Below, piece by piece: positions 7,074 to 50,124 of a stretch of DNA of 64,000 nucleotides. The position numbers and the translations under genes are program-made. The notes below the pieces were generated by a model. It had not been told where the DNA came from. It ran no database searches and was given only the letters and a program-made list of their open reading frames with translations. This DNA is from a bacterium. GTDB lineage: Bacteria > UBA10199 > 2-02-FULL-50-16 > JAJFLM01. Numbering within the stretch: the first letter of the stretch is position 1; each line of letters begins with the position of its first letter. The stretch spans positions 2,272,001 to 2,336,000 of the forward strand of contig CBDCFN010000016.1 in assembly GCA_965216315.1 (NCBI GenBank), read 5' to 3'.

Positions 7074-7853
7074 CTATTCGGGCATTTCCTCGACCGACCC
7101 ATCCGTATTCATCATTGCCCCGTCTTTTGCGATACGCTCCATGAGTTCGTGTAGTGGAACGGCATGACTCCGACGGGATTCAAACTTTCGCTCTTCATGC
7201 TTTTCATCCGTCGCCGCACCTTCTTCCGCGTCGTCATCCTCCCGCATTTCCTTTGCTTGCATCGGCATCAATCCAGCCAGATGACCGTAACTGGATTTAT
7301 TTAAAGTTGTGAATGAAGTATCCGTCTCTGCTTCGGTATTCGGAAGCGCGACCCAACGATCGTCGTCGAGAGCCAGACCAAGCTGTCCCCAGCTTAGCGG
7401 ACGTTCGCTCGCCTCGACATGAAGCTGTTCACTCAAACCCTCTTCCGTCGTGAAAAGCAAAGGGATCTGCTCCTCGCTGCTGAGACTCAAGGAGAAATGA
7501 TAATACTGCCCGGTCTCAACCCAAAAACTAAAACGACACTCGAAATCGACCGAACCGATGACGACGGTTTGAGGACCCTGCTGCACCCAAATCTGGCGTC
7601 CGACGCAGTCGCCGTCGCCCGCGAATTCCGCTTCTGCCTGCCACTCGGACTGCGGCGGCACCATGCCGATGATCTGGCGATAGGCGGACGGTGGATTACC
7701 GGCCTCGGTCCCGCCTTGAAACTGGCTTAGCGGCGGCTGCGTGCCGCAGGCAAAGCCGCCCAGGGCCTGAATGAACAGGCCCACCACGATGACGATGCAT
7801 TTTCGTATGGTGTATTCTCCCGATAAGATATTTTGCTTAAGTGAGAACATCAC
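7074..7853 (-). CDS. Putative lipoprotein, GGTEAGNP-motif family; start uncertain, possibly ATA at 7808
   Basis: Hydrophobic stretch ending GFAC, GGTEAGNP, C-x22-C-x-F domain shared with four other lipoproteins. Confidence 0.7.
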   Translation of the reverse strand: MMFSLKQNILSGEYTIRKCIVIVVGLFIQALGGFACGTQPPLSQFQGGTEAGNPPSAYRQIIGMVPPQSEWQAEAEFAGDGDCVGRQIWVQQGPQTVVIGSVDFECRFSFWVETGQYYHFSLSLSSEEQIPLLFTTEEGLSEQLHVEASERPLSWGQLGLALDDDRWVALPNTEAETDTSFTTLNKSSYGHLAGLMPMQAKEMREDDDAEEGAATDEKHEERKFESRRSHAVPLHELMERIAKDGAMMNTDGSVEEMPE

Positions 7854-7858
7854 CTAAG

Positions 7859-7920
7859 TTATCGAAAGAATAAAGGAAATGTTGTATACAGCGGAAAATA
7901 TCTGTTGACTCAAGTCAACA
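7859..7920 (-). promoter_or_regulatory. Sigma-28-like promoter (CAAC-N15-TCGATAA) plus GTTGAC-N4-GTCAAC box
   Basis: ttatcga 7859-7865, gttg 7881-7884, tgttgactcaagtcaaca 7903-7920. Confidence 0.65.
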
Positions 7921-7929
7921 GCTGCGCCT

Positions 7930-8754
7930 TTAGCGCAGCTGTTCGTGCAGATCTTCCGGATCTTCGATCGGCTGCTGCGCGCCACCGATCTCATTCAATG
8001 ATTTGATGACCTTAATAACGCTGTCTCTTTTGATCATCATTTTATCATCACCCTGTTCTTCTTCCTGCTCCGTAATACCGTAAGTTCCGGTGAACGGATT
8101 AGTCACCTCTTCGGCGCCTTGATTCTCCTCGGTGCCGCCAAAGCCTTCTGCAGGACCGGCCTGTTCCGTCTCGTCTTCACCTTCGCCCTCAGGATAATAG
8201 GGACCGCCGGTCCCTTCACTGGACCCGCCCGCCCGGGCGGCATAACTATCGCCTTGCTGGTAGAAGGAGATCTTGCCAATATCGTGGGTCACTCCGCGGC
8301 CTTCGAAACGGACATGAGGCGTATCATCATCGCCAAAGCCAACTCGAACCCGGGTGCCGTCAGGCATTTCAATATCAAACATATACTTGTCGCCAGACCG
8401 CAATCCAGGGATCGTAAAATCACAACTCGGCGTTACAGACGCACTTGTCTCTAAATGAGTGTGCACGTTCGTGGCAATAACCTTAACGCCCGCGCAGGCG
8501 TTCGGTAAATTCGGATCAAAACCGGGAATCTCCTGCATACGAGGAACGTTACCGGTCACCGAAACGATGCCGGGGTTTTCGGCCTGCCCGGGATCTTGAT
8601 CAGTCACCGAGGGACCGTTCCTGGGGTTACCCGCTTCGGTACCGCCTCGAAGTCCGGGATTTCCTAAACCGCCACCACTACCCCCAGTATTGCAAGCAGT
8701 GACCGTTATCGCCACGACAGCCAAGGTTAAAACTAAATTAAATGCTTTCTTCAT
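7930..8754 (-). CDS. Lipoprotein, GGTEAGNP-motif family
   Basis: MKKAFNLVLTLAVVAITVTAC lipobox (ATG 8754); GGLGNP and GGTEAGNP; C-x23-C-x-F...DIG domain; directly downstream of a TIGR02147-like gene. Confidence 0.8.
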   Translation of the reverse strand: MKKAFNLVLTLAVVAITVTACNTGGSGGGLGNPGLRGGTEAGNPRNGPSVTDQDPGQAENPGIVSVTGNVPRMQEIPGFDPNLPNACAGVKVIATNVHTHLETSASVTPSCDFTIPGLRSGDKYMFDIEMPDGTRVRVGFGDDDTPHVRFEGRGVTHDIGKISFYQQGDSYAARAGGSSEGTGGPYYPEGEGEDETEQAGPAEGFGGTEENQGAEEVTNPFTGTYGITEQEEEQGDDKMMIKRDSVIKVIKSLNEIGGAQQPIEDPEDLHEQLR

Positions 8755-8779
8755 GATGTAACACCCTTTCGTACGCTTC

Positions 8780-9628
8780 TTACGCTCTTTCATGTTTTGT
8801 CACCGGCAGCATCTGGATACTGAGCAAGACAACATCATCTGGATTGTCATCGTCAGCAACCAACTGGAGGATTTCGCGTCGAAACTCCTGAATGCGTTTT
8901 TTGATCTGCGGGACTCTTTCTTTAATAATTCCTAAAGTCAGAGCACTGACATCCCGTTCTTTTTGTTCCACCTCGGGAAGCTGCCCTTTTAATAAATCAA
9001 ACAAACTCTGGTGATAATTTAAAAGCACGAGGGAATCGGCTTCGGCACCGCTCGTTACAAGCGGTGTCGCCTGTTTCCACTTATTGGTCACCGCATCACG
9101 CTCAATAAAATGAAGTCGCGCCAACAATTCGACGGACTTTTTTACTTGCGCGGGAGACACTTCCGGCTGCAATCTTTTAGCCAACCACTCGATTGAACCG
9201 TCAAAATCCTTAGAAATGATCAACTCGCGCACAACCGGATGATACCAGGTTGAAAAATACTCGTAACGATCCTGCGCAAGTGGCTCTAACTGACTGTAGC
9301 GTTGAGAACGAATCAACTTCTTATAGTAAGCGTTTTTTTCCGCGTGCGTTTTCGCCTGATTAAAGAAGACGAGATTACGAAAGTGCTCGCGCTCCGGACG
9401 CTCCAGTTTGATTCCTTTAATGAATTTCTTGAGGCTTTCCTCAGTCAGGTTACGTTCGCCATCCATGACGAGTTTAAAAATATTGGAGGATTTAAAGCCG
9501 GCTTGCCGGGAAAAGACCCGATATGAAAACCCGTACCGCTCTTTGGCCGATTCATACCAATCGCGCAAGAAGGCCCGGTAATCCATATAATCGAATACTG
9601 AGACGTTATTGTTGCCGTTGTTACCCAT
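8780..9628 (-). CDS. TIGR02147/DUF4423-like putative DNA-binding regulator, copy 1
   Basis: Family motifs F.Y.DYR.FL.DWY, SYR.FS..AGFKS.N...LV..G.RNL, F..LV.FNQA, YFS.WYH.V.REL, LL.YH, RD.SALTLG. Confidence 0.88.
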   Translation of the reverse strand: MGNNGNNNVSVFDYMDYRAFLRDWYESAKERYGFSYRVFSRQAGFKSSNIFKLVMDGERNLTEESLKKFIKGIKLERPEREHFRNLVFFNQAKTHAEKNAYYKKLIRSQRYSQLEPLAQDRYEYFSTWYHPVVRELIISKDFDGSIEWLAKRLQPEVSPAQVKKSVELLARLHFIERDAVTNKWKQATPLVTSGAEADSLVLLNYHQSLFDLLKGQLPEVEQKERDVSALTLGIIKERVPQIKKRIQEFRREILQLVADDDNPDDVVLLSIQMLPVTKHERA

Positions 9629-9676
9629 GTCACTTACCTATACGCTATTATACCCTGTATACTGCCTGTTCTCTAG

Positions 9677-9704
9677 TTATCGTTCAGCGTCCGGCTTGAG
9701 TTGC
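9677..9704 (-). promoter_or_regulatory. Sigma-28-like promoter (GCAAC-N16-ACGATAA) upstream of regulator copy 1
   Basis: ttatcgt 9677-9683; gttgc 9700-9704. Confidence 0.6.
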
Positions 9705-9825
9705 CTCATTTTGACGAAATTTATCAATTTTTTGTATGCAGCAATCCCTATCTAACTATCTGTTATTATTAATTTTTTAATTTCTATCTTATTTATGCCC
9801 TTTTTTTTGAGTCAACAGGCCCCCC

Positions 9826-9888
9826 TGTTGACCCAGGTCAACAGATAATCCTGACGAAACGCAACGAAGACTCGAACGAATCCGATAA
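9826..9888 (+). promoter_or_regulatory. GTTGAC-N4-GTCAAC box plus sigma-28-like promoter (GCAAC-N16-CCGATAA)
   Basis: tgttgacccaggtcaaca 9826-9843; caac 9862-9865; ccgataa 9882-9888. Confidence 0.7.
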
Positions 9889-9931
9889 GTCTCAACGAAA
9901 CGAACCGCAATTTCTGAGCATGGAGGCAACA

Positions 9932-10522
9932 ATGGGTGAACCAAGCACACTTCTTAATATCTATAATAGCACCAAAGACTATATTTGGAACTTAGCCGCT
10001 GCGCAGCCCGTGGAAACGGATAGCGATGTCGCTTCCGGCGCTGATGACACGGCGCAAACTCATGCGAATACGGATTTACTAGACAAGACCGTCACCCCCT
10101 GCAAAAAGGCAACTCCTTCGGTCGTTCGCCTTCATCAAGCCCCGATGCGCCCCGGCCAGCGGGACGATGGGGATACCGAATTCACCAATTTCATGAAACG
10201 ACCCGGTTTCGGGCACGACGAACGCGTCGTCAGAGAGCTTGGTTATGCGTTTGACAAGTCGAAACTACCGGACACGATTACAGTCCGCATGCAAATATCG
10301 TCCAATGGAAGTATTGCGGTCGCCGAACTCCCGGAAGACTACAAACCACCGAAGGGCATTTCACGGGAGGAAATGAACCACATCATTCATCGAGCGCTCG
10401 TGCCTTTTAGCGTGCCTAGCTATGCAGTGCCGGAAGCATCGCGAACGAATCCATGCGCGTGGATCACGCACACCATATCGCTGAATCCGACACCGGATCC
10501 GGCATCAGTACCTAACAGTTAA
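9932..10522 (+). CDS. Hypothetical protein, no signal peptide; weak resemblance to a TonB-C-terminal-like fold
   Basis: GGAGG RBS before ATG 9932; followed by a terminator; TITVRMQISSNGSI segment. Confidence 0.65.
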   Translation: MGEPSTLLNIYNSTKDYIWNLAAAQPVETDSDVASGADDTAQTHANTDLLDKTVTPCKKATPSVVRLHQAPMRPGQRDDGDTEFTNFMKRPGFGHDERVVRELGYAFDKSKLPDTITVRMQISSNGSIAVAELPEDYKPPKGISREEMNHIIHRALVPFSVPSYAVPEASRTNPCAWITHTISLNPTPDPASVPNS

Positions 10523-10556
10523 AAACAGCTTACACATACGCACCCATGACACTCCG

Positions 10557-10597
10557 AAAAAGGTCATCCTCTTCACCCCTTGAGGATGGCTTTTTTT
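10557..10597 (+). terminator. Rho-independent terminator, possibly bidirectional
   Basis: aaaaaggtcatcctc-loop-gaggatggcttttttt. Confidence 0.75.
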
Positions 10598-10675
10598 CGT
10601 TCACTCGTGTTGACTGACGTTAACAGATAAACTTTTTGCAACGCAACAGTGTGTCGGTAGGTACCGATAACTAAT

Positions 10676-10758
10676 ATACAACAAGTTATTCAACTTACAC
10701 ATACGCACCCATGACACTCCAAAAAGGTCATCCCTCTCCCCGGGGGGATGACCTTTTT
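10676..10758 (+). ncRNA. Candidate ~80-nt small RNA
   Basis: Lies between a promoter motif (10644-10670) and a terminator hairpin (10721-10758) with no complete + strand ORF. Confidence 0.5.
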
Positions 10759-10890
10759 ACTTTTAAAGGTGTTAACTTACGTCAACAGATAAAGCCTTCG
10801 TTAACGAATATTAAACAACATCGTTTGCGAATAACCGATAATACTACAGGTAGGCTAACTGATAACTCGTTTCAGAAAGGTTGGGATAAC

Positions 10891-11238
10891 ATGTCGTATC
10901 AAATTCATACCGTCCGTCCGGGAGACACGTTGGCAAGCATTGCGCGGCACTACGGCGTCACCATGCAGCAACTCCGGAAGCTGAATGTTCATCTCACGCA
11001 ATCGAGTGGCTCGATTCCTCGTACGAGTGCAGGAAGTAAGATTTACGTCGGTGACGAAGTCCGTATTAAAGAGCTCCTTGAGTGCGGCCGCAACGTCGGG
11101 CCTTTTCAGTTGGGTTGTCGTTATGCGTCGAGTGACACATTAAAACTGGAGTTTGGTATCAAGGGCGACGTAAGCACACAACCCCTTAATTCCTCAATCA
11201 TGGTTGGCGCCAGAATCACTTTTTCCGGGGGCAACTAA
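10891..11238 (+). CDS. LysM peptidoglycan-binding domain protein
   Basis: HTVRPGDTLASIARHYGVTMQQLRKLN...KIYVGDEVRI; ATG 10891 lies downstream of promoter 10816-10841. Confidence 0.85.
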   Translation: MSYQIHTVRPGDTLASIARHYGVTMQQLRKLNVHLTQSSGSIPRTSAGSKIYVGDEVRIKELLECGRNVGPFQLGCRYASSDTLKLEFGIKGDVSTQPLNSSIMVGARITFSGGN

Positions 11239-11247
11239 ATAGCTGAA

Positions 11248-12435
11248 CTAGGGTTGCGCCGTAAACGAAGTCGTTGCGGCCTTGGTCTTACCGCCCGTCC
11301 CGCAGTCGATTTCATCGACCTTGACCTCGTATTCGGTCCCGGCGGCAAAGGGGTCAACGCCGTGCTCGCACGCGATCTCATCCGCCCCCAGCTGATGGTT
11401 GGTGCAATCGACGTCGATCGCGAGTCCTTTGGGCTGAATAATCAGCGCGCTGGGAAAATCGATCAGGCCAAGATGATATTTGCAGCCCAAGCGAACAATC
11501 ACCTGTTCCGAGAGGCCTACGCCCGTCTGACCGTTGAAGGGATAAATTCTCAAGACCGGAACCATCCCCCCCAAATCTTCCTCACGACAAGGTGAGCCGG
11601 GATCATTGTCATCGATAAAACCATTGAGGTCACAATCCCGCTCCATTTGATCAAGTACGCCGTCGTTATCATCGTCCGTGTCGATCGCATCCGAGTCCCC
11701 ATCCTCGTCGCGGTCCGTATAGATCTCCGGATTGTGTTCCGGAATCGCGTCAAGACCCTCGATCTGCACCCGACCTAAGTCAACGGGTTTCTCGGCCGGG
11801 AGCCCGACGTAAAACTCATTTTGGCGGATAAAGGCGCGCTGCTTACTGAGATGTTCCATCTTCACGACCAGGCGCGCGACGAGGTCACCGGTCTTTTTTC
11901 GGAACTCCAGCATATAAGCGCGCTTGGTCGGCACAGCGAGCTTAAAAGAGCAATCCGATTCAATTCTCGTAGTGAGCTCTTGTCGTGCAGAGTTGATCGC
12001 GGTCACGGTCGCGGCCGGACAGACCTTGACTACCGCAATTTTAGTCGCCTGCTCGGCCCATTCCGTCCGGATGTTTACCAGACTCATCTGCATGAGCGGC
12101 CTGATATCCTTATACGGCAATTCGCGCACCGGGCTCTCGATCAGCTGCCGTTCCTCTTCCACGGGCTGCAGCTGACCGATGATCAGGCGTAGCGGAGCCG
12201 GATCCTGATCGTAAGGTGTTCCCGGCCGTGGCCCTGGTCCCGGATCAGTCGGCGTCGCTTCCGGATTCCCGAAATCCGTTCCCCCGAACTCTGGGTTCCC
12301 GAAATCCGTTCCGCTGATCGTTTGCTCGGTATCGACAATGTCCGGTGGTGCGGTATCCGCTCCCTGCGGCTGGACGCACGCGGCAATAAAAAAGACGAGC
12401 GCAATAGTACTGAGCAACCGGCTCCAGCAGGTCAT
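11248..12435 (-). CDS. Lipoprotein with two GTDFGNP motifs, Asp-rich Ca-binding (TSP3-like) repeats and C-terminal Ig-like domain
   Basis: IAAC lipobox; SGTDFGNP and GGTDFGNP; C-x22-C-x-F..DLG; DRDEDGDSDAIDTDDDNDGVLD; ATGA overlap with regulator copy 2. Confidence 0.85.
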   Translation of the reverse strand: MTCWSRLLSTIALVFFIAACVQPQGADTAPPDIVDTEQTISGTDFGNPEFGGTDFGNPEATPTDPGPGPRPGTPYDQDPAPLRLIIGQLQPVEEERQLIESPVRELPYKDIRPLMQMSLVNIRTEWAEQATKIAVVKVCPAATVTAINSARQELTTRIESDCSFKLAVPTKRAYMLEFRKKTGDLVARLVVKMEHLSKQRAFIRQNEFYVGLPAEKPVDLGRVQIEGLDAIPEHNPEIYTDRDEDGDSDAIDTDDDNDGVLDQMERDCDLNGFIDDNDPGSPCREEDLGGMVPVLRIYPFNGQTGVGLSEQVIVRLGCKYHLGLIDFPSALIIQPKGLAIDVDCTNHQLGADEIACEHGVDPFAAGTEYEVKVDEIDCGTGGKTKAATTSFTAQP

Positions 12436-13292
12436 GATCCACCTGCCTCGTCCGTCGGCTCTTCGACCATCGGGAATAAATAGATATTCAACTGCAAGAC
12501 CTCCTCCGTCTCCGTATCATCGGCGACCAGCTTGAGGATGTCCTGTCGAAATTTTTCGATTTTCTTCTTTATCTGGTGCAGGCGGGGCTTGGTTACTCCC
12601 AAGGTCAACGCCCCCATATAGCGCCTCGGTGCCGGAACGGCCCCAAGCAGGTGGGGGAGAAGCTTCATCATAGTCTTATGATAATTGAAAAGCTCAACGG
12701 ATTCAATAGCGGTCCCGGGGGCGAGCACGGAAGAGCTCTGTTCCCAGCGTCCTGACGGGCTGCGATGGATCAATTCGAGCTTTTCCAAGAGCTCGAGCGA
12801 GGCTTCGACCTGCTCCAATTTGATCCGTTTTCCGAGCCGCGTCATCAACCATTCCGGGGTTCCATCATAGTCCTTGGCCGTGATGAGCTCGCGAATGACC
12901 GCATGGTACCAAGCCGAACAATATTCATGCTGATGGGCTCTAATCGGTTGTCTTTGTTGGTATTTTTTCGAACGCAGCAACAAGTTGTAGTAACGATCCT
13001 CTTCTTCATGGGTCTTGGCCTGGTTATACGCGACCAGATTGCTAAAAAAATCGGCGTCCTGGGCCGCCAGCTTCAAGGCCTTAACCGTCTTCGGCAAGGT
13101 ATCCGCAGTTAAGTTCCGTTTTCCCTGAATGACCAACATGATGTAGTTGGAGGACTTGAACCCGGCGCGTTCCGCAAATCTTCGATAGGACATGGAGGCC
13201 CGGGTCTTTTTCTTCGCCTCAAACCAGTCGCGCAAATAGGTACGATAATCGTTGTAATCGTAGAGATTTATGTCCTCTGCCGGCTCCGACAC
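12432..13292 (-). CDS. TIGR02147/DUF4423-like regulator, copy 2
   Basis: Same motif set as 8780..9628; GTG start. Confidence 0.88.
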   Translation of the reverse strand: MSEPAEDINLYDYNDYRTYLRDWFEAKKKTRASMSYRRFAERAGFKSSNYIMLVIQGKRNLTADTLPKTVKALKLAAQDADFFSNLVAYNQAKTHEEEDRYYNLLLRSKKYQQRQPIRAHQHEYCSAWYHAVIRELITAKDYDGTPEWLMTRLGKRIKLEQVEASLELLEKLELIHRSPSGRWEQSSSVLAPGTAIESVELFNYHKTMMKLLPHLLGAVPAPRRYMGALTLGVTKPRLHQIKKKIEKFRQDILKLVADDTETEEVLQLNIYLFPMVEEPTDEAGGS

Positions 13293-13357
13293 CTACCAAA
13301 AATACCTGTAATTACTTGTAGGCGCAACTAAATGGTCTCTTTGGGAGTTCTGGACCG

Positions 13358-15238
13358 CTAACCCTCACCATTCGGGTCTTGGATGACCATGCGTGCCGCC
13401 GCCGTCCAATAGTCGACGTCAATCTCCGCATCGACGAGGAGGCGTGCCCCGGCCAAGGTCGTAATCTCCGGATGTTCGTGGAAGCGAATCGGGATCAACG
13501 GGATAAAGTAAGGTGGGTAACGCTCCAATACATAATCAAGCAGCTCCATTTTATCATCGTCGCTAAGCCACTCGAGTCGCGCTAACCCCAAAAACCGAAA
13601 GGCCTGTCGCAAGTTGAGCGGCTTCGGATAGAGCGACACATGGGCCGTTTGATAGATATTCCATAATTCGTGGAGGTGGCTCTCGATCTGACTGCGCTGT
13701 TTCTGCGGCGAGGTCACGCCGCCACCTACGAAGATGATGTGCTGTCCCGGATAACGCAAAAACCGTTTGGCAAATTCCGCAAATTTCTCGACATACTTAC
13801 CCGAGATATAAACAGACTCATCAAAAATAAACACTGTCGGTTGCACGATATCATCGATCTCGCGGATCAAGCCGATGGCCCGATCACCTCCCCCCATCGC
13901 CTGGGCATCAAGCGAAACGACTCGGTGCCCCCTTTCTGATAAGACCCGTTCCAAATTCCAGATGAGAACCTCACTTTTTCCGGAGCCCGAAAGGCCGGTC
14001 GAAGAGACGAGCTGGACACCATCCTCAATCGCGCTAACGACCTGATCGACTTCGGAAGCACGATAGTCACGAAGCGACTTATCCGAAGGATCTCGATCGA
14101 TCGACCGCAGCAGCCGACTATCCTGAGTACGAAAGCCCACCACATGATAAGGGGATCGCGGTTGAGTCCGCTGCGATAAGTCAGGAATCGGCGGGGTCTG
14201 ACGCGGGCGCGGAAATAGGTGGGGTCGATAAATAATCAAGGCATTGCGCACCGTCTCCGGCAAATTGGTAAAGGGCATCCCGAGCACACCCCGTACACGA
14301 CGGAGAATGCGGCCGCCGCGTCCCGCAATAACCGATTCACGAAAACGGCTGATAGTCTCATCATCCTTTAAATCCAATTGCATCGTGTAGCTGGAGCGAT
14401 CGAGCAAGAAGGCCAGCCCCGGACGGCGCGCCACGTCCACGACCTGATCAACCGTAAACTGATAACCATGACGCTCAATAATCTCGGACACAACTCGCAG
14501 CCAGCCGAGTTTAATCCGGGGGAGCACAATAAACCCAGCGAGTTCGCGTGGACTCCTCAGTTCATTGTATTTATCTTGAGCAAAGGCCTCGCCGTAATCG
14601 CCCGCAAATTCCTTCAGTTTATTGCCGATGGCATTGCGAGTTCCCTGATCGATCGTAACCCCATCAAAGAAGCGGTAGGCATAACGGCCGACCTCACGCG
14701 CTTCGATCTGGAAGTCACTCACCATCCCACTCTTGCGCGCAAAATGAAGTAGATTTTGATGGATCTGCAGAGCCAGTCGGGACTTGGATCCCGTAATTTC
14801 TATGGATGTATCACTCCTTCGCGTCAGCGATCCGTCCGCATTCCGTTGCCAGACGTACGTACAACTTCCATTGATACTGTCACCATTCCCTTTAAACTCG
14901 GCGTGCGTCTCAAAAGTATTTTCGTTGTGTCTCGCCACACGCAGGCAATCAAGCTTCAAGGAAATGTTCATTCCTTCAAAGGCATTAATCAGATCCTGGA
15001 TGGTGACCCGCTCCCCAAAGAATTGCGCAAACGCTTGATGCAAAGCGGGATGCCGCGACGCATCCTCAATCGCATAGTCGACATCGTCGATCGATACGGA
15101 GCTGAGCCGGTGCGTTTGAATAGGAAACGGCCCCGAAGGAGGATTTAAAATATCGAAAGAATCCCCGGAGGCCAGAACAGTCGTCATCAAGCCTATTGAG
15201 GCTAAACCGTTCGTATAGGAGGACACCACAGGCAGCAT
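13358..15238 (-). CDS. Hypothetical multidomain protein: possible GNAT-like N-terminal region plus P-loop NTPase
   Basis: Walker A GLSGSGKS, Walker B VFIFDE; IEAREVGRYAYRFFDG segment; start either GTG 15244 or ATG 15238. Confidence 0.7.
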   Translation of the reverse strand: MLPVVSSYTNGLASIGLMTTVLASGDSFDILNPPSGPFPIQTHRLSSVSIDDVDYAIEDASRHPALHQAFAQFFGERVTIQDLINAFEGMNISLKLDCLRVARHNENTFETHAEFKGNGDSINGSCTYVWQRNADGSLTRRSDTSIEITGSKSRLALQIHQNLLHFARKSGMVSDFQIEAREVGRYAYRFFDGVTIDQGTRNAIGNKLKEFAGDYGEAFAQDKYNELRSPRELAGFIVLPRIKLGWLRVVSEIIERHGYQFTVDQVVDVARRPGLAFLLDRSSYTMQLDLKDDETISRFRESVIAGRGGRILRRVRGVLGMPFTNLPETVRNALIIYRPHLFPRPRQTPPIPDLSQRTQPRSPYHVVGFRTQDSRLLRSIDRDPSDKSLRDYRASEVDQVVSAIEDGVQLVSSTGLSGSGKSEVLIWNLERVLSERGHRVVSLDAQAMGGGDRAIGLIREIDDIVQPTVFIFDESVYISGKYVEKFAEFAKRFLRYPGQHIIFVGGGVTSPQKQRSQIESHLHELWNIYQTAHVSLYPKPLNLRQAFRFLGLARLEWLSDDDKMELLDYVLERYPPYFIPLIPIRFHEHPEITTLAGARLLVDAEIDVDYWTAAARMVIQDPNGEG

Positions 15239-15245
15239 ACTCACT

Positions 15246-15272
15246 TCATCGCCGCTCTGCGTAAGAAGTTGC
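15246..15272 (-). promoter_or_regulatory. Sigma-28-like promoter variant (GCAAC-N15-GCGATGA)
   Basis: tcatcgc 15246-15252; gttgc 15268-15272; fills the short intergenic gap. Confidence 0.45.
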
Positions 15273-16121
15273 TTAAGCCTTGGGGCTCGTTAACGGAAAC
15301 ATGTGAATATTGACCTGAACGACCTCTTCCGGGGTTTCATCTGCGGAGACGAATTTGAGGATGTCCTGACGAAATTTTTGGACTTTTTTCTTGAGTTGCT
15401 CCAGCCTTTCTTTACGCACCCCGAGGGTCAATGCACTGATATCGCGTCGTTCTCCCGGTACGGTATCAAGAACCTCCTTGGTCAACTCGAGCATATTATA
15501 ATGATATGCAAATAATTCGATCGAGCGAACATCCGCCCCCGTCGAAACTAAACTATGGCTCTGTTTCCACCGACCTTTTTTATTGCGCTTGGCGAAGCCC
15601 AAGGTTTCTAATAATTCGAGAGAATGCGTCACATCGGCAACAGATACTTTCGGAAAAATCCGTTCCGCAATCCATTCAGCAGTCCCGTCATATTCTTTTG
15701 CCGTAATGAGTTCGCGAATGACGGCATGGTACCAACGAGAGCAATATTCATATTGGTGCGTGCGTATCGGTTCTAACTGGTTATACTTTCTCGACCGCAG
15801 CATGCGTTGATAATAACGCTCTTTGTCCCGCTGATGTTCCTCCTGCGTATAATGAACCAGGTTTTCAAAAAATTCCGTCTCCTGCTTGTTCAGCTTGAGC
15901 GCCTTGGCCACTTTAGGAATGCTTTCTTGGCTCAAATTTCGCTTGCCCTGCAACACCATCATAATGAAATTCCAGGACTTGAGGCCGGCACGCTCCGAGA
16001 ACTTTCGATACGACATGCCCGCCCGGGTCTGTTTAGCAGCTTTGTACCAATCGTTTAGAAAATCACGATAATCTAGATAACTAAACGGGCTGACCTGATT
16101 GGCAATGCGTGACTGTGACAT
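15273..16121 (-). CDS. TIGR02147/DUF4423-like regulator, copy 3
   Basis: Same motif set as copies 1 and 2. Confidence 0.88.
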   Translation of the reverse strand: MSQSRIANQVSPFSYLDYRDFLNDWYKAAKQTRAGMSYRKFSERAGLKSWNFIMMVLQGKRNLSQESIPKVAKALKLNKQETEFFENLVHYTQEEHQRDKERYYQRMLRSRKYNQLEPIRTHQYEYCSRWYHAVIRELITAKEYDGTAEWIAERIFPKVSVADVTHSLELLETLGFAKRNKKGRWKQSHSLVSTGADVRSIELFAYHYNMLELTKEVLDTVPGERRDISALTLGVRKERLEQLKKKVQKFRQDILKFVSADETPEEVVQVNIHMFPLTSPKA

Positions 16122-16443
16122 AGGGGTTTCAATGATCTTATAACAACCCCCTCATCAAGTACACAGAAATTGGCATGATGCTTTTAAAGAAAAGAGGCTA
16201 ATAATACCTCGCTTTTTAGCAGCGAGTTTTCTGTACACGCTCAATGCACAGAGCCTTGTTGCAGAGGACACCGGCAAGGCGGCACAGCAGGCAATGACGG
16301 GGCGACGACCGGAGAGACGCCGCCCCGCCCAGGGTTCAGCTAGCGGTATTGACCGATTCCAAGGAAACGGACGCACCCGACAACCACCAGCAGAGCCAGA
16401 GTGCCTACAGAGAGAAGAACTGATGACTCGCCCGAACAGTTAG

Positions 16444-16515
16444 TTATCGGATATATGAGGTCCGCGGATGCGGATTATCAGCAGAATATTCTATAATCAG
16501 TGTACTTTAGTACAC
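16444..16515 (-). promoter_or_regulatory. Sigma-28-like promoter (GCATC-N16-CCGATAA) plus GTGTAC-N4-GTACAC box
   Basis: ttatcgg 16444-16450; gatg 16467-16470; gtgtactttagtacac 16500-16515. Confidence 0.6.
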
Positions 16516-16565
16516 TAACAAGTCTCATTTATTTAACAATTCTAAGCAACTATGATTAGTCGATT

Positions 16566-17711
16566 CTATAAAGCCGTCTTAAAAGTCCAACTCGTCTGCG
16601 GAATACTTTCCCCGCCGTCACAGTCGGTCTCCAGCAGCGTCGCCGTGTACGTCATGTTGTGCACAAAGGGAAGCGCGTGCGTACACTCAATAACCGTATT
16701 GCCAACAAAGAGAACCGACACGCACGCAATCGTGGCAGCCACTTCATCCTCGAGTTTGATCTTGCCCGAATCAAACTGGCCGACATCAACGGGGCAACTG
16801 ACCTTGACCCGTATCTTTTGCAACTCACCTATATCCGTTTCGCCACTAAAAGGAGACGCTGCGAGCACTCGCGGTCCGGAAGAGGATCCTCCTGCGGAAC
16901 ACGCGGAATCTTCGTCGCCATCATCGGGAAAGCCATCGAGGTCACAGTCCGGCTCTTCCACATCAGGAATTCCATCATTATCGTCGTCAGGATCGTCTTT
17001 GTCATTGAGGCCATCTCCGTCGCGGTCACTCCACGCGCGCGGATCATTGGCCGCCGTTGCAATCTTACCTGTGCGCGCAATAGCCCCCAAATCGAGCGGG
17101 GTGTCCGAAGCCGGGATGTTGAAAGTATGAAGCGGAACGCCTCCGACTACTGAGACGACTAAACGCGATTGGATCGAGCCTGCCGACCAAAAACTCATAT
17201 GATAAAGTTGATTGGAGGGGACCTCAATACGGAAAGAACAATCGTCTTGAATATCGGACTCATGAACCTCTCCATCGGAAGCGGTTAACTTGACGTGGTC
17301 GACCCCGCAAATCAGCTTCGGCGGGGTCGCGAAGGAACCGGGACCAGGCGCGGGCGGTTCCGGCACGGTACTTCCTCCCGTCGTAAACCCCGGGGCCAAA
17401 CCTACCTGGTCGCCCGCGAATCCAGGATTGTCTCCCGGTGCCGGCTCCTCGTTCCCTGAAGGGGCCTTTTCTGCAATGAGTTTCAACTGACCCGTCACGA
17501 GAGCGATGGGATTGCCGAATTCGGAACCCCCTTGAGGATTACCAAATTCCGAACCTCCCTGTTCCTGCGGATTACCGAATTCGGAAGCGCCGGTCTTTTC
17601 GACCTCAGCCCCAGTGGGGACGTTATCGGGAGAATCAAGACCGCCTCCCGGTACACAGGATGTCAGTAGGAATAACAGGGCCGTAATCGAAACAATTGAA
17701 CGCGCGTGCAT
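16566..17711 (-). CDS. Lipoprotein with three G(A/G)SEFGNP motifs, Asp-rich repeats and Ig-like domain; paralog of 11248..12435
   Basis: LTSC lipobox; GASEFGNP, GGSEFGNP, GGSEFGNP; C-x22-C-x-F..DLG; DRDGDGLNDKDDPDDDNDGIPD. Confidence 0.85.
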   Translation of the reverse strand: MHARSIVSITALLFLLTSCVPGGGLDSPDNVPTGAEVEKTGASEFGNPQEQGGSEFGNPQGGSEFGNPIALVTGQLKLIAEKAPSGNEEPAPGDNPGFAGDQVGLAPGFTTGGSTVPEPPAPGPGSFATPPKLICGVDHVKLTASDGEVHESDIQDDCSFRIEVPSNQLYHMSFWSAGSIQSRLVVSVVGGVPLHTFNIPASDTPLDLGAIARTGKIATAANDPRAWSDRDGDGLNDKDDPDDDNDGIPDVEEPDCDLDGFPDDGDEDSACSAGGSSSGPRVLAASPFSGETDIGELQKIRVKVSCPVDVGQFDSGKIKLEDEVAATIACVSVLFVGNTVIECTHALPFVHNMTYTATLLETDCDGGESIPQTSWTFKTAL

Positions 17712-17760
17712 AGACTCTCCCTTTATACCATGTTGTCCCCCGTCAGGGAATAACTACCGA

Positions 17761-19239
17761 TTATTGTCTCAACAGCGCACGGCGCCCAAACAACACGCCT
17801 AATGCTGCCAAGGCCATCACGAAGAGGCCGAGTGTATTTGCCGCGTGAGGCGTCGCGTTCAGGCTACAACCACCCGATGTCGCGAGTGATTCACTTTCTT
17901 CACCCGTTCCATCACCGACGATAACTTCTTCATTTTCCGCCGGATTCTCTTCCGCATCCTCTCCCTTATCCGCGTCTATGTTTATAAGTTCGCCTTCACA
18001 TTGATCATCACAACCGTCGCCATTTTCTTCATTCCCGTCGTCGCAGTCCTCTCCCTCATCCACAATACCATTGCCACAGAGACCTTTTTCGAAGGCCCCG
18101 ACATCCGAACTGACCCCAAGAGGCCTCGGAAAACCGCGCTGGTCTTCAGCCAGCTTGACAATGATGGCGGCATCAATAGCGAGGCTGCCGGCTCCAAGCG
18201 CATGTGTGCGGGTGTCTCCGCCGTTAAAAGCCAAGGCTTGCAACTTAAGATCGGCACTGTCGACTCCCGATTGATCCGTCGTTTCCGTAAGGTTACAGGT
18301 TCCGTCGACATCAATGTTGCCACCACCCGATGTAATCGTCCCGAGACCACCGGACGTATCGCAATTCGCGTCAACGCCGCCGGATCCGTCTACCTGTGCC
18401 AACAAACTATTATACAAATTCACTTCGCCATCACCGGCAACGAGATGAGCCGCTAGCAGGTCAGCACGATTATGATAGAAAGTGACATGCCAGAGATCCA
18501 CATCGTCCGCGAGACTCACCAGCCCGCCACCGGTCGGCGCCGTATTGTTACTGATCGTGACATTCACCAACTTGATGTTGCTAGAGCCCGTTCCAACGGC
18601 AACACCGCCACCAAAATCGGCAGCGCTATTGTCGCTGACCAAACAGCGCTCCATATCAAGCGTTCCGGTTCCTATCGCCAGACCGCCGCCAGCGTCGGCT
18701 TCATTGCCGATAAGCTCGACATCACGCAAAATAATATCACCGGATCCATCCGAATAGATTCCGGCACCGGGTTCCGTGGGGCTCGATCCACTCTGAATCG
18801 AGAGTCGCTCAAAAGTTACGTTCGCATTATTTAAAACGTGAAACACTCGACTGTGTTGACCACCACTGATAATCGGCAGAGGCAATTTCTTAAGCGGGAT
18901 AGCACCCGAACTCAAACTCGGGTCCCCTTGGATGATGACATCATCCGTGATATCAAAATCGCGCAGGCCATTCGCATCATCATCGACAAGCATCGTCTCA
19001 TCGATTCCATAAATGCCGTTGGCAATGATAATCGTATCTTCGCCGGGATTGCTATTCGCTAGATTAATCGCCGCACGCAAGGTGCATGACGTTCCGCCAC
19101 CGAGCATGAAGAAACAGATACCACCATCTTCCGTTCGATCCACGGTATAAGTCTCCGCGTGGACTTGAGCCGCCGCCAACATCGCGACAACCACCGCGCT
19201 AATAATTGAGAATTTTTTAATCGTTTCCAGTATACCCAT
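17761..19239 (-). CDS. CSLREA/choice-of-anchor Q surface protein with MYXO-CTERM-like sorting signal
   Basis: Signal peptide, CTLRAA, one Cys-rich repeat, C-terminal SGGCSL-linker-TM helix-RR. Confidence 0.88.
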   Translation of the reverse strand: MGILETIKKFSIISAVVVAMLAAAQVHAETYTVDRTEDGGICFFMLGGGTSCTLRAAINLANSNPGEDTIIIANGIYGIDETMLVDDDANGLRDFDITDDVIIQGDPSLSSGAIPLKKLPLPIISGGQHSRVFHVLNNANVTFERLSIQSGSSPTEPGAGIYSDGSGDIILRDVELIGNEADAGGGLAIGTGTLDMERCLVSDNSAADFGGGVAVGTGSSNIKLVNVTISNNTAPTGGGLVSLADDVDLWHVTFYHNRADLLAAHLVAGDGEVNLYNSLLAQVDGSGGVDANCDTSGGLGTITSGGGNIDVDGTCNLTETTDQSGVDSADLKLQALAFNGGDTRTHALGAGSLAIDAAIIVKLAEDQRGFPRPLGVSSDVGAFEKGLCGNGIVDEGEDCDDGNEENGDGCDDQCEGELINIDADKGEDAEENPAENEEVIVGDGTGEESESLATSGGCSLNATPHAANTLGLFVMALAALGVLFGRRALLRQ

Positions 19240-19277
19240 GATCTTTCCTCCAGTTAGAAATTTTTCGGTCCTACTAG

Positions 19278-19350
19278 TTATCGACTCCGGTGGGGTCTAA
19301 GTTGAGCGTCAATGAGGAATATTTACCTAAAACAGTGTACATGAGTACAC
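19278..19350 (-). promoter_or_regulatory. Sigma-28-like promoter (CAAC-N16-TCGATAA) plus GTGTAC-N4-GTACAC box
   Basis: ttatcga 19278-19284; gttg 19301-19304; gtgtacatgagtacac 19335-19350. Confidence 0.7.
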
Positions 19351-23209: not shown

Positions 23210-23782
23210 TCAAACTGGTCTGTCTAATTTTTTATATGTTAGCTTTTTTTCGTCTGGAATCACGGGGATGAGTTCGATCGACATCGTCATCATCTCTTCA
23301 GGAACGACATCATCGTCGACTAAATTGAGAAGTTTACTCCGAAACTCTCGGATTATTTTTTTGAGTTGAGGCAAGTTATCTCTAATGATTCCAAAAGTAA
23401 TCTCACTTAAATCGCGTTTACCCTGATCGAGGCTGAGTGTTTGAAGGCGATGCACATTACGAATAGCCATCAGTTCTAGATAGTGTTCCTTAATTTCGTC
23501 AGGGCTCTCAGCCTGATTTAAGAAGACGAGATGCCGAAAATACTCCGCTTCGTCGTCTTCCAAGCGCAAACCTCGAATAAATTTTCTTAAACTTTTTAGT
23601 GTTAGGTTGCGGTCGCCATCCATAACGAGCTTGAGGATATTAGAAGAACCAAACCCGGCATGTTGTGAAAAGATACGGAGAGAAAATCCGTAGGTCAGGC
23701 GCTTGGCACTCTCATACCAGTCCTTGAGAAAAGTCCTATAATCGAGATAATCATAGACACAGATGTCGGATACAATATTCAT
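23210..23782 (-). CDS. TIGR02147-like regulator, copy 4, with internal deletion
   Basis: N-terminal HTH region and C-terminal RDLS.ITFG region present; central WYH..YH block missing; promoter motif at 23817-23842 favours ATG 23782. Confidence 0.8.
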   Translation of the reverse strand: MNIVSDICVYDYLDYRTFLKDWYESAKRLTYGFSLRIFSQHAGFGSSNILKLVMDGDRNLTLKSLRKFIRGLRLEDDEAEYFRHLVFLNQAESPDEIKEHYLELMAIRNVHRLQTLSLDQGKRDLSEITFGIIRDNLPQLKKIIREFRSKLLNLVDDDVVPEEMMTMSIELIPVIPDEKKLTYKKLDRPV

Positions 23783-23995
23783 GCTAAACCTGTATCCGCT
23801 TTGATGCCCACTTTCCTTATCGGTCAAAGCCAAATTTTGTTTTCAACTATTTTTAATTTTTTGAAAAAACTCTTAATTTCAGCGACTTATAATGACTACG
23901 AGGCAGGCGGAACGGACCGCAGCCTCTCGGTCCGCCCGCCAGCAGTGCTATCGCACCGGTCATACCCTCGCGATAGGTGGAGTCATTTTCATCGA

Positions 23996-46252: not shown

Positions 46253-46276
46253 CTTAGAACAAGGAAGTCAAGGGGC

Positions 46277-47233: not shown

Positions 47234-47238
47234 TACAA

Positions 47239-47276
47239 ATAAAAATAAGGACCCCAGTTAGGGTCCTTATTTTTAT
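47239..47276. terminator. Bidirectional terminator-like hairpin downstream of tRNA-Ser(GCT)
   Basis: ataaaaataaggaccc-cagtta-gggtccttatttttat. Confidence 0.75.
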
Positions 47277-47277
47277 G

Positions 47278-47364
47278 CGGAGAGGGTGGGATTCGAACCC
47301 ACGGTGCAGTTTCCCGCACACTTCCTTAGCAGGGAAGCGCCTTCAGCCACTCGGCCACCTCTCC
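47278..47364 (-). tRNA. tRNA-Ser(GCT)
   Basis: GGAGAGGTGGCCGAGTGGCTGAAGGCG-CTTCC-CTGCTAA-GGAAG, long variable arm, GGTTCGAATCC. Confidence 0.95.
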
Positions 47365-47611
47365 GATCCGAAAACGAAAGCGCAGCTTCCGCTTTCTTTA
47401 GTTAAGGGGAAGATACTGCTCTCCCCCTTAACTATCCCTCATCTGTCATAATCGCCTCAATTTCAAGATATTTTCTAAGGAGGGGGTACCAGCGAGCGCA
47501 GCGAGTGTCCGTAGGGGGAACCTGGGTTCCCCCTCGGAAATATTCGAAAGTGACAATTGGATTCAATCTATGAGCTTCGTTTTAGCGAAGCCCTCTAGGT
47601 CACTACAGATG

Positions 47612-47696
47612 CGGAGGGGGTGGGATTCGAACCCACGGTACCTTGCGGCACGGCGGTTTTCAAGACCGCTGCCTTCAACCACTCGGCCACCCCTCC
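47612..47696 (-). tRNA. tRNA-Ser(TGA)
   Basis: GGAGGGGTGGCCGAGTGGTTGAAGGCA-GCGGT-CTTGAAA-ACCGC, long variable arm, GGTTCGAATCC. Confidence 0.95.
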
Positions 47697-47925
47697 AATT
47701 CGCCAGCGAAAGCATGAGCTTTCACTGGCCTTAGTTAAGGGGGGAGATAAGGGCCTCCCCCCCTAACAATTCCCCTCTGTCTTGTTCAGACGGGGGTACG
47801 GAGAAGTGTCACATCCTAGCGACGTTGAAGTATGTTGGCAAGTCAGGTGTTCATTTACACACCCAAAAAGCCCCTCGCGGGGCTCTTGGGGTGTGTATTG
47901 GGTGATGTAAAGAAAAACTTTCAAC

Positions 47926-48468
47926 TTATTTTGCGTCAGCCACGACTCCAGTATCCAAATTAAGGTAGTGACGGTGTCTTCCCGTCGCATCTGTATAGAC
48001 AAGCTTAACTTCATGGTCGTTACGCCCTGCCGTAATACGGACATTCCGCTTAATGTAATTGAAGCCATTTAGGTCGCGATCAAATTTTCCAATAGTTGAA
48101 CCAATCAATCGATACTGACCATCCGACATCAACGCAGACGTTTCTTCCCAGCCAGAACCGTCACCCCAATACCGTGTATTATCATCTCTACGGGTTAGGG
48201 ATACGAAATGACGGTCCAAAGTTTTTTGGGCTCTTTTGCTGGTCTTGTAGCGTGTGTCATGATCGAGTCGATTTTTACATAGATCATCCAGTGCCCTCCG
48301 AGGATCGATTGAGCGCTCGACTCCATCGATTGTTTGGCAAAACGCATCCCCTTCATCGACAACCCCATTCTCATTGAGATCACGAACTCTCATGCCAGCG
48401 GGATTATTAGAATTGTACTCGTCGACAGATACCTGTTTAAATAACTTCGGATTCTTTATTTCCGCCAT
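47926..48468 (-). CDS. Hypothetical protein with an EF-hand-like DLNENGVVDEGD motif
   Basis: GGAGG RBS; promoter/box cassette upstream; terminator-like hairpin near 47856-47896. Confidence 0.7.
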   Translation of the reverse strand: MAEIKNPKLFKQVSVDEYNSNNPAGMRVRDLNENGVVDEGDAFCQTIDGVERSIDPRRALDDLCKNRLDHDTRYKTSKRAQKTLDRHFVSLTRRDDNTRYWGDGSGWEETSALMSDGQYRLIGSTIGKFDRDLNGFNYIKRNVRITAGRNDHEVKLVYTDATGRHRHYLNLDTGVVADAK

Positions 48469-48554
48469 CACACACCTCCATGCTTTTCAAATTTTCGTCA
48501 GTATTGACACGAGAGTTGCTACAAGAGAGGTATTTCCGTGTACTCTAAGTACAC
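48469..48554 (-). promoter_or_regulatory. Cassette: GTGTAC-N5-GTACAC box, CAAC-N16-ACGAAAA promoter, GGAGGTGTGT RBS
   Basis: Box 48538-48554; gttg 48515-48518; ttttcgt 48492-48498; divergent from regulator copy 5. Confidence 0.7.
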
Positions 48555-48631
48555 GCTCATAATGCCATATAGCCCTTTTTAAACACTAAATAAGTAGGAT
48601 ATTGTCCTTAATATAGACGGAAATTTCGGGT

Positions 48632-49486
48632 ATGATAGTACACGTGACCCCAGTCAAGCTCTTCGAATACCTCGATTACCGCGAATACCTCAAAGCTTGG
48701 TTTGAGGCAGCCAAACAGACACGGGCGGGGATGTCGTACCGGCTCTTTTCCAAGCGGGCCGGGCTCAAATCGACTAACTTCATCATGCTCGTCATGCAGG
48801 GCAAACGGAACTTGAGTGACAAAGCGGCCAAAATGGTCGCGAAAGGGCTCAAGCTGTCCAAGGAAGAGTCGGAGTTCTTCCGCTATCTCGTCCTCTTTAA
48901 CCAGGCCGAGGCCCATAACGATAAGGCCCTGTATTATGAGCAGATGCTGCAATTTCGACAGTACCGCAAGCACCGGCCGATTAGCCAGGAAGAGTATGCA
49001 TACTGCTCTCAATGGTATCATGCGGCCATTCGCGAGCTGATCCTTGATCCTGATTTTGATGGCAAGCCCACCTGGATCGCGGAACGGCTTGGCAATCGAA
49101 TTAGCCGCGAGGAGGCTGCAGAATCGCTGAAGTTACTGCAAAAACTGAACTTTGTGCAGCGCACCCCATCAGGTCGCTGGCAGCAACAGGATGTGACGCT
49201 GACGGCGGGATCTCGGGTTGTATCTCTCGAGTTATTCAATTATCATTTAAGTATGATGGCGCTGTCCCCCCAGTTACTTGAAAGCCTGCCCGGGCAGCGT
49301 CGCGATATGAGCGCGGTCACGATGGGTATCGCAGCAGGACGTTTGCCTGAGCTCAAAAAGAAACTCCAGAAATTCCGTAAGAGTCTCCTCAAATTTTCCG
49401 CTGAAGCGGCCGACCCCGAGGAAGTGGTGCAGGTCAATCTCTACATGTTCCCCTTAACCGTCCCGAAAGGGTGCAAAGACTCATGA
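48632..49486 (+). CDS. TIGR02147/DUF4423-like regulator, copy 5
   Basis: Same motif set as copies 1-3. Confidence 0.88.
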   Translation: MIVHVTPVKLFEYLDYREYLKAWFEAAKQTRAGMSYRLFSKRAGLKSTNFIMLVMQGKRNLSDKAAKMVAKGLKLSKEESEFFRYLVLFNQAEAHNDKALYYEQMLQFRQYRKHRPISQEEYAYCSQWYHAAIRELILDPDFDGKPTWIAERLGNRISREEAAESLKLLQKLNFVQRTPSGRWQQQDVTLTAGSRVVSLELFNYHLSMMALSPQLLESLPGQRRDMSAVTMGIAAGRLPELKKKLQKFRKSLLKFSAEAADPEEVVQVNLYMFPLTVPKGCKDS

Positions 49487-50124
49487 AATTCATATTACTA
49501 GGAACTCTGCTCTTCTTATTAAGTGCCTGCGCACCGGGGATGTCTCCCCTTAGCAGCAGTCCTACTTCAATGGATGCGGAAACGGCAGGTGGTGAGACTG
49601 CAGCTCCCGACGACGTCGACGCCGGGAGCCCCCAAGTTGGGGGGACTGAATTTGAAAATCCCGAAGCCGGCGGCGCGCCTCCCGATGTACCGGGAGAAGA
49701 TATCCCCGTCAGCGACGAAGATGATGACCCTAAAGGAAACCCTGCGGACACCGTACAAAACAATACGACACGTATTGTCGTAGGCCACTTACAAACCGAA
49801 GGGGGAGATAACGATGGCGCGGCCAACCCTCACGTCACGGTTCTCGGCTATGTGAACTCGAGTTGTCCCGCGGACGATCTTATCATCGTTGACCCGAACG
49901 CGAAGGAACAATCGGTCAAGATTGGTCCGAAATGTCTCTTTCAATTCAGTGCCCTAACAGGTCTTCATTACCAGGTACGCTTCCTAAAAGACGGCGAAAT
50001 GGTCGCTAAATTTCCCACGCCCCTACTGGTCAAACAGGGGAACCCCCCCCTCGACCTGGGGAAAATTCGATTTCAGGATGGGCTGGCAATCCGGACCGCT
50101 ATAGAAAAGAAACTCTCTCCCTGA
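49483..50124 (+). CDS. Lipoprotein, GGTEFENP-motif family
   Basis: MKFILLGTLLFLLSAC; GGTEFENP; C-x22-C-x-F..DLG; ATGA overlap with regulator copy 5. Confidence 0.85.
   Translation: MKFILLGTLLFLLSACAPGMSPLSSSPTSMDAETAGGETAAPDDVDAGSPQVGGTEFENPEAGGAPPDVPGEDIPVSDEDDDPKGNPADTVQNNTTRIVVGHLQTEGGDNDGAANPHVTVLGYVNSSCPADDLIIVDPNAKEQSVKIGPKCLFQFSALTGLHYQVRFLKDGEMVAKFPTPLLVKQGNPPLDLGKIRFQDGLAIRTAIEKKLSP

Follow-up and report, generated by a model that had tools for sequence, protein, structure and literature searches.

Rap-Phr, PlcR-PapR, PrgX and AimR-AimP share a common plan, in which a regulator gene is followed by the gene of an exported product that carries a short peptide. RRNPP receptors bind this peptide in a large helical-repeat domain of 200 residues or more, and the peptides are private to each paralogue, being either the C-terminal part of a small pro-peptide or derived from a signal peptide. 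Enterococcal pheromones derive from lipoprotein precursors. Here we describe a 64,000-nt stretch of bacterial DNA (lineage UBA10199; GenBank assembly GCA_965216315.1, contig CBDCFN010000016.1, positions 2,272,001 to 2,336,000 of the forward strand; hereafter the window) in which genes of the TIGR02147 family stand beside genes for predicted lipoproteins that carry a short motif, G-[T/S]-[E/D]-x-G-N-P (hereafter the tag), behind the lipid-bearing cysteine. A preliminary description of this DNA had proposed that the motif is a released ligand of the adjacent regulator, with an export or assembly signal as the alternative. The arrangement resembles the RRNPP plan, a regulator gene followed by an exported product bearing a short conserved peptide. 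It differs in that the tag follows the lipidated cysteine of large lipoproteins instead of ending a small pro-peptide, and in that it is common to distant paralogues instead of private to each. RTX repeats, which follow the pattern GGxGxDxUx in tandem, are also distinct from the tag, which has neither Gly at position 4 nor Asp at position 6 and is single in 54 of 57 strictly defined cases.

The nearest known kind of post-lipobox tag is the lipoprotein export signal (LES) of Bacteroidota, a K-(D/E)2 or Q-A-(D/E)2 motif that works only as C-X-K-(D/E)2 and that surface lipoproteins of this one phylum generally carry (Lauber et al., 2016; PMC5080379). Both LES and the tag are short, acidic, cargo-independent motifs just after the +1 Cys. 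Compared with LES, the tag contains no Lys, varies in spacing, can occur in one to four tandem copies, and is confined to genes beside TIGR02147 in other phyla. In Myxococcus xanthus, lipoproteins are sorted by a Lys at +2 (inner membrane) or an Ala at +7 (matrix) (Bhat et al., 2011; PMC3222651). This too places sorting information near the +1 Cys, and in a phylum that also carries the gene pair described here. The signals are single-residue preferences rather than a seven-residue motif, and they are not linked to a regulator gene. The tag thus differs from the LES and Myxococcus signals in sequence, positional freedom, tandem repetition and confinement to one operon type. In the literature that could be searched, we found no paper on the function of TIGR02147 (‘Fsuc_second’) or DUF4423 or on a link of the family to tagged lipoproteins, and none containing the motif strings (six variants); the DUF4423 protein Bd3700 is tabulated in one study as upregulated during growth in prey.

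The element is real, highly specific and widely distributed. In the 2.96-Mb genome the pattern G[TS][ED].[GE]NP occurs 14 times among 5,928,456 six-frame residues, while the reversed motif is found a single time and composition alone would give 0.79 occurrences in the same six frames. Thirteen of them are within lipoprotein frames of 202-422 codons, 29-79 residues from the start. These frames represent 11 genes, ten of which (12 copies) adjoin a TIGR02147 gene. Conversely, a profile built from the window regulators identifies 14 TIGR02147 paralogues genome-wide, and each of the 13 full-length ones is adjoined by a same-strand lipoprotein gene with the motif or a one-residue variant of it (e.g., GGTQAGNP, GGTEATNP, GVSEAGNP, GGSVAGNP), downstream in 12 cases and upstream in one. 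The sole paralogue lacking a partner is a truncated copy. Eleven distinct octapeptide variants are found among these 13 cassettes, as we call a TIGR02147 gene together with its lipoprotein gene or genes. The one orphan tagged lipoprotein, C16:1825329-1826009(-) (…LELGTETGNPQF…), is encoded behind another lipoprotein gene (1826062-1826907), and no regulator or remnant was detected within 10 kb of it (tblastn over 21 kb, nothing below E 0.2).

Related genomes display the same linkage. TIGR02147 is present in 35 of the 41 genomes searched, with 1-18 matches each. The DNA pattern GGNWSNGANNNNGGNAAYCCN has 64 matches in 40 relatives, and its reversed form has 19. Of the 64, 37 (on 33 contigs) lie 78-262 nt past the end of a same-strand TIGR02147 match and 27 are unlinked, eight of the latter encoding Cys or Arg at the T/S position. 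Of the 19 unlinked matches that were fetched, 17 are spurious reading frames or positions inside unrelated proteins, and two are true lipoprotein N-termini cut by a contig end. Given the 19 matches of the reversed control, the unlinked matches are about as many as chance would supply. All three matches in genomes devoid of TIGR02147 are spurious (41 genomes). The motif is therefore tied almost absolutely to TIGR02147 genes and is not common in unlinked lipoproteins, with 12 of 13 genome copies linked and the unlinked matches of relatives near chance level.

Beyond these relatives, a scan of one genome per species yielded 568 confirmed relatives of the regulator. Among the best 80 of the 568, the next gene mostly encodes a lipoprotein with the same core right behind the Cys. 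The pairing occurs in records labelled Polyangiaceae, Bradymonadales, Haliangiales, Bdellovibrionales, Bacteriovoracaceae, Oligoflexia, Fibrobacter and Chitinivibrionales. The segments around and after the lipobox read CSGTETGNP and CSVNYTGGTETGNP in Fibrobacterota, CTGTETGNP and CSSTGVGNP in Polyangiaceae, CVGTDVGNP in Bradymonadales/Persicimonas, CEGGTEVGNP in Haliangiales, HCGTEIGNP in Bdellovibrionales and SCGGTDSGNP in Bacteriovoracaceae; the core GTETGNP thus recurs in distant phyla. Among 120 full-length regulators, the gene that follows carries the strict tag in 57 cases, a looser variant in 40 and none in 23. The looser pattern was drawn up post hoc and is permissive, a reservation that does not touch the strict count (57/120), and several of the 23 tagless regulators have no callable open reading frame (ORF) after them or no room on the contig. 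In the 57 strict cassettes the tag begins 1-22 residues past the Cys (mode 2; 10 or fewer in 50 of 57), with one copy in 54, two copies in two and four in one. Of 71 regulator-lipoprotein gene pairs, 43 show a 4-nt overlap.

The tag is selected as protein, since its codons vary freely at the third position. Among the 21 copies of this genome each of the four Gly codons is used, as are Ser codons of both the TCN and the AGY type, and synonymous differences separate the three tandem copies of 16566..17711 from one another. An operator or RNA element inside the coding region was ruled out on the same ground. The logo of 62 strict copies reads G, T/S, E/D, a variable position (T, V, F, A, I or S), G, N and P, with no Lys. 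Asn-Pro is invariant in all 62, and the residues that follow it vary (S, D, P, E, V, T, G).

Within the window, nine motif copies in five lipoprotein genes had been pointed out earlier, and all nine are where they were said to be (Table 1). All five ORFs open with a hydrophobic leader closed by a lipobox Cys (VTAC, IAAC, LTSC, LSAC and GFAC); these lipoboxes are predicted, having been assigned by eye and by regular expression. The tags follow the Cys by 6-49 residues in lipoproteins of 217-395 residues. When the five are aligned with 15 relatives, the lipobox Cys, the GG, N and P of the tag, a Gly in the first strand and a Cys pair 23 apart (C-x22-C) are invariant, and a Phe (after C-x22-C-x) and a Tyr are nearly so. 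The downstream features listed in the preliminary description (strand Gly, C-x22-C-x-F, Tyr) are borne out by these 20 sequences. They also show that the five, at 17-30% identity, are one paralogous family and not unrelated proteins. Members share a beta-sandwich, and long ones add Asp-rich repeats and an Ig-like end, as the alignment with relatives places them in 11248..12435. None of the five has an NCBIfam match, and Pfam gave only a weak, sub-threshold Big_5 match to residues 278-379 of 16566..17711. The earlier statement that the lipoprotein gene follows the regulator gene applies to four of the five, which lie in operons opening with a TIGR02147 gene, and fails for 16566..17711, which lies upstream of its nearest regulator gene, 15273..16121, across a gap of 444 nt. 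Three of the four are directly 3' of the regulator gene, two with a 4-nt overlap (11248..12435, and 49471..50124 if translation starts at ATG 49483), and 7074..7853 is the second lipoprotein gene of its operon.

Table 1. Regulator genes, tagged lipoprotein genes and a candidate operator in the window (coordinates are window positions).
Feature	Position	Strand	Details
Tagged lipoprotein 2 of cassette 1	7074..7853	-	GGTEAGNP at aa 47-54, nt 7692-7715
Tagged lipoprotein 1 of cassette 1	7930..8793	-	Start 8793, or Met14 at 8754; lipobox VTAC, Cys34; GGLGNP nt 8656-8673; GGTEAGNP nt 8623-8646
TIGR02147 gene, first gene of cassette 1	8780..9628	-	NCBIfam E 7e-83, 278 bits; Pfam DUF4423
Inverted repeat, candidate operator	9808..9835		Upstream of 8780..9628; 12-nt arms, 92% complementary, 4 nt apart
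Tagged lipoprotein of cassette 2	11248..12435	-	SGTDFGNP nt 12292-12315; GGTDFGNP nt 12262-12285
TIGR02147 gene, cassette 2	12432..13292	-	TIGR02147 E 2e-77
TIGR02147 gene, cassette 3	15273..16121	-	TIGR02147 E 7e-83
Tagged lipoprotein, three tags	16566..17711	-	GASEFGNP nt 17568-17591; GGSEFGNP nt 17535-17558 and nt 17508-17531
Truncated TIGR02147 paralogue, 207 aa	23210..23833	-	E 4e-36; model positions 4-112 and only the end of DUF4423
TIGR02147 gene, cassette 4	48632..49486	+	TIGR02147 E 3e-76
Tagged lipoprotein of cassette 4	49471..50124	+	Likely start ATG 49483; GGTEFENP nt 49639-49662

The tag lies in the tether and outside the fold that follows, in agreement with the preliminary description. 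In the AlphaFold2 (AF2) model of 7074..7853 it is a coil before the first strand (residues 58-64) of a beta-sandwich spanning residues 58-171. Structural matches to this sandwich, which are generic (Z at most 7.1), begin at residues 48-59, mostly at 54-59, and so cover at most the last tag residues. Moreover, 20-40 extra residues separate tag and first strand in three window paralogues, with about 40 in 49471..50124. The tag as a strand of the cargo domain was accordingly rejected, on the coil in the model, the insertions before strand 1, the start of the matches past the tag and the variation in cargo.

Elsewhere the cargo differs: it may be DUF4382-like, Beta_propel, serpin or of unrecognised fold. 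Four relatives encode tagged lipoproteins of 77-158 residues that consist of signal peptide, Cys, tag and an acidic Pro-rich tail, and these domain-less genes are followed by a separate Beta_propel lipoprotein gene. Two other loci have Beta_propel lipoproteins that bear the tag themselves, and at four (L022, L027, L029 and L030) an untagged Beta_propel lipoprotein follows the regulator. A search for relatives of the 77-residue tagged lipoprotein L008, confined to a single length setting, returned only L008. The tag is thus a portable, membrane-proximal short linear motif that is usually present and, as some cassettes have tagless Beta_propel lipoproteins, not indispensable. A separate observation concerns L101 1467-3017(+), in a Polyangiaceae-labelled record, where a serpin lipoprotein (Pfam Serpin, E 2e-98) with the tag variant CARNGTETDNP is encoded directly after a TIGR02147 gene.

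The same data bear on whether the tag has any function of its own, or is instead an inherited feature that caps the first strand on its N-terminal side, or a habitual linker in one expanding family. In most members of the window family the tag stands only 3-5 residues ahead of the first strand, and the block containing G-N-P has a mean pLDDT of 82 in the AF2 model. The motif nevertheless accompanies unrelated folds and proteins with no fold, is parted from the domain by the insertions in three window paralogues, and is conserved across phyla while the tether around it has fully diverged, which makes an element devoid of separate function highly improbable.

The invariant Asn-Pro suggests another role, that of a processing site. 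Asn-Pro bonds are self-cleavage sites in FlhB/YscU-type proteins, where the motif is N-P-T-H within a folded domain. Cleavage of the tag, for example at Asn-Pro, could free the cargo from a short lipopeptide stub that stays behind, or could separate tandem copies; at the usual place of the tag, 1-10 residues past the lipid anchor, the whole cargo would be released. Unlike NPTH, however, the tag is followed by varying residues, the segment is predicted to be coil where self-cleavage needs a folded context, and no protease gene is conserved in the cassettes inspected. We regard a processing site as quite unlikely.

The four full-length regulators of the window score 256-278 bits against TIGR02147 (cut-off 50) and 122-138 bits against DUF4423 (cut-off 30). 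The truncated paralogue 23210..23833 has a tagged lipoprotein on neither side, and the gene after it is an unrelated one of 264 aa. The AF2 model of regulator 8780..9628 (282 residues, pLDDT 83.6) is predicted to combine two DNA-binding folds. Residues 15-97 superpose on helix-turn-helix (HTH) domains of the XRE/HigA type (Z up to 8.3) and residues 115-200 on winged helices of the ArsR/MarR/LexA/BlaI type (Z 6-7.3), middling values that indicate the type of fold only. About 80 residues remain, forming two long helices. Foldseek returned no match of the regulator in the PDB at E <= 0.001. Pfam and NCBIfam scans found no TPR or other repeat family in the regulators, and the lack of one among the structural matches does not exclude such a family.

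An inverted repeat precedes cassette 1, with arms TGAGTCAACAGG/CCTGTTGACCCA. Upstream of 48632 stands CGTGTAC-N5-GTACACG, and other paralogues are preceded by small palindromes that differ from one another and are candidate private operators; these were seen by eye, and only the repeat at 9808-9835 was scored. Such a palindrome would fit a self-regulating DNA-binding protein.

The preliminary description had read the order of the genes after the Rap-Phr and arbitrium pattern. By this account the tag would be cut from the tether, released and re-imported, and would bind the neighbouring TIGR02147 protein as a ligand private to that locus. The order of the genes, regulator before exported tag-bearer, and the near-absolute cis linkage agree with it, as do the one to four tandem copies, each under purifying selection, the small lipoproteins of 77-116 residues with little beyond the tag, and the eleven octapeptide variants over 13 cassettes. 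Peptide uptake is possible because three Opp/Dpp-type binding proteins are encoded (SBP_bac_5, PF00496), an unspecific trait, as the family is also present in 11 of 14 control genomes. Several findings oppose a private ligand. GGSEIGNP occurs in two cassettes of this genome whose regulators are 46% identical and [G/H]GTETGNP in two whose regulators are 38% identical, so identical octapeptides would cross-talk, and the same core extends across phyla. The orthologous three-copy cassettes of two related genomes differ (SEV/SEV/AEA and SVA/SQA/SVA) beside a conserved domain start. The variable position tracks cassette clades, with F in one regulator clade, A in another and I/T/S in the DUF4382 clade, a distribution that suggests duplication and drift. 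The modelled regulator comprises two DNA-binding folds, with no Pfam repeat domain and about 80 residues left over; the argument from size draws on what is generally known of RRNPP receptors. No conserved cleavage sites flank the tag except its own GG and NP. The tag is N-terminal on lipoproteins of 200-400 residues and N-terminal, too, in the forms of 77-116 residues. These organisms are diderm, and a released peptide would have to cross two membranes. The released ligand was thus not sustained, mainly in view of the HTH and winged-helix model, the N-terminal tag, the octapeptides shared by distant regulators and the core found across phyla; the pheromone model in its private-ligand form is unlikely, and we give it only a slight probability.

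We tentatively prefer, at somewhat less than an even chance, to regard G-[T/S]-[E/D]-x-G-N-P as a short linear recognition tag of a self-contained TIGR02147 cassette, read by a common envelope factor. The motif itself, its position, its conservation at the protein level, its independence from the cargo fold, the TIGR02147 linkage and the DNA-binding type of the folds in the regulator model are all shown by the results above. On this scheme the cassette would open with a cytoplasmic protein of two predicted DNA-binding domains (an XRE-type HTH and a winged helix), which most likely acts on a palindromic operator of its own to autoregulate the operon. The regulator gene would be translationally coupled to one or two lipoprotein genes, whose signal peptide, Cys and tag would form a constant ‘handle’ for a swappable cargo domain. 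A single conserved envelope factor, common to all paralogous cassettes, would read the tag and so direct sorting, docking or processing near the membrane. A common reader is favoured because identical octapeptides serve distant regulators and the core recurs across phyla. The export or assembly signal named as the alternative in the preliminary description comes closer to this recognition tag than the ligand idea does.

Several observations weigh against such a tag. A general sorting signal should spread beyond the cassettes, and only one orphan is found here and none in 40 relatives, apart from the two contig-edge cases. A cis linkage this strict is more readily explained by a direct functional tie of tag to regulator than by an envelope reader acting independently. 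Cargo sorting alone leaves the small domain-less tagged lipoproteins unexplained, as it does the two to four tandem copies that are each kept by selection. The known post-lipobox signals are strictly position-dependent (PMC5080379), whereas the spacing of the tag ranges from 1 to about 40 residues. Finally, the Beta_propel cassettes L022, L027, L029 and L030 manage with no tag.

Three of these points lend some weight to a direct link between tag and regulator: a cis linkage stricter than a general sorting tag needs, the domain-less tagged lipoproteins and the selected tandem copies. All its forms taken together have about one chance in four. Direct coupling could follow a topology other than that of a private ligand: the regulator might bind the tag on unexported pre-lipoprotein, or all paralogues might sense one common tag-derived peptide or lipopeptide that reports turnover. 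Feedback of the first kind, coupled to secretion, has precedents in flagellar FlgM/sigma-28 and in type III chaperones. A fixed stoichiometry is suggested by the strict cis linkage and by the 4-nt overlaps that couple translation (43/71), and the tag is never found in genomes devoid of TIGR02147 (41 searched). In addition, both the tag and one segment of the regulator are highly conserved; the segment, with W129, Y130 and E136 each at or near 100% conservation in 120 sequences, could form a pocket. This segment is, however, equally conserved in regulators with no detected tag (a mixed group), and we know of no Sec lipoprotein precursor that sequesters a transcription factor. A complex prediction for regulator 8780..9628 with residues 34-100 of 7930..8793 scored 0.09 (mark 0.32), a value that weighs on neither side. 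On balance, direct coupling of this type appears unlikely. A related and likewise unlikely proposal is that the tag is a channel that tells each TIGR02147 protein the fate of its co-translated lipoprotein, either as a peptide or lipopeptide stub that is freed at Asn-Pro and taken up again, or by offering a handle while the precursor is still unexported.

A second short motif is found in the same genome at the opposite end of proteins. Thirty ORFs have GGC[S/A]L within their last 50 residues, including window genes 2119-5160(-), 5388-6950(-) and 17761-19239(-). Nine of them continue into a hydrophobic helix and a basic end (MYXO-CTERM-like), and 21 end 2-9 residues past the Cys (…GGCSLIRK, …GGCSLVRR) with no membrane helix. 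Many of these proteins are of the beta-helix, choice-of-anchor Q or cysteine-rich-repeat type, and the short tail may be a separate sorting signal, judging from sequence. Seven of 21 choice-of-anchor Q genes lie within 6 kb of a TIGR02147 cassette (C16:2256000-2291300, that is, window 1-19300, and others); five of these seven share one 25-kb island with four cassettes and are not independent. In two secreted proteins, C16:106686-108161(+) and L125 (G032:C50) 172-2658(+), a GNP-type motif (…GAGNPSAGGCSLLR; …GTDTGNPEGSKASGGGCSL…) stands right before the C-terminal Cys motif, a placement that mirrors the tag beside the N-terminal lipid-bearing Cys and could be due to chance; the gene C16:106686-108161 directly follows a tagged lipoprotein gene. 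Between two cassettes of the window, 13358-15244(-) encodes a 628-residue protein with a GSGKS stretch resembling a Walker A motif and no Pfam or NCBIfam match.

The large TIGR02147/DUF4423 family, which has no known function, also has members in cultured lineages of Fibrobacter, Bdellovibrio and myxobacteria, and its near-constant pairing with a lipoprotein that carries a seven-residue tag makes both family and tag accessible to tests. Should the tag serve in sorting or docking, it would be a new post-lipobox code outside Bacteroidota and would point to an envelope machine not yet known. If it talks to the regulator, it would represent a new kind of envelope-to-gene signalling. Were it a channel for the fate of the lipoprotein, Fibrobacterota, Myxococcota, Bdellovibrionota and allied uncultured lineages would possess an unrecognised regulator-lipoprotein signalling module, the first peptide-type cis signalling of its kind in diderm bacteria. 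Either way, hundreds of ‘hypothetical lipoproteins’ can be grouped by a shared element, and the tag itself offers a portable tool for experiments.

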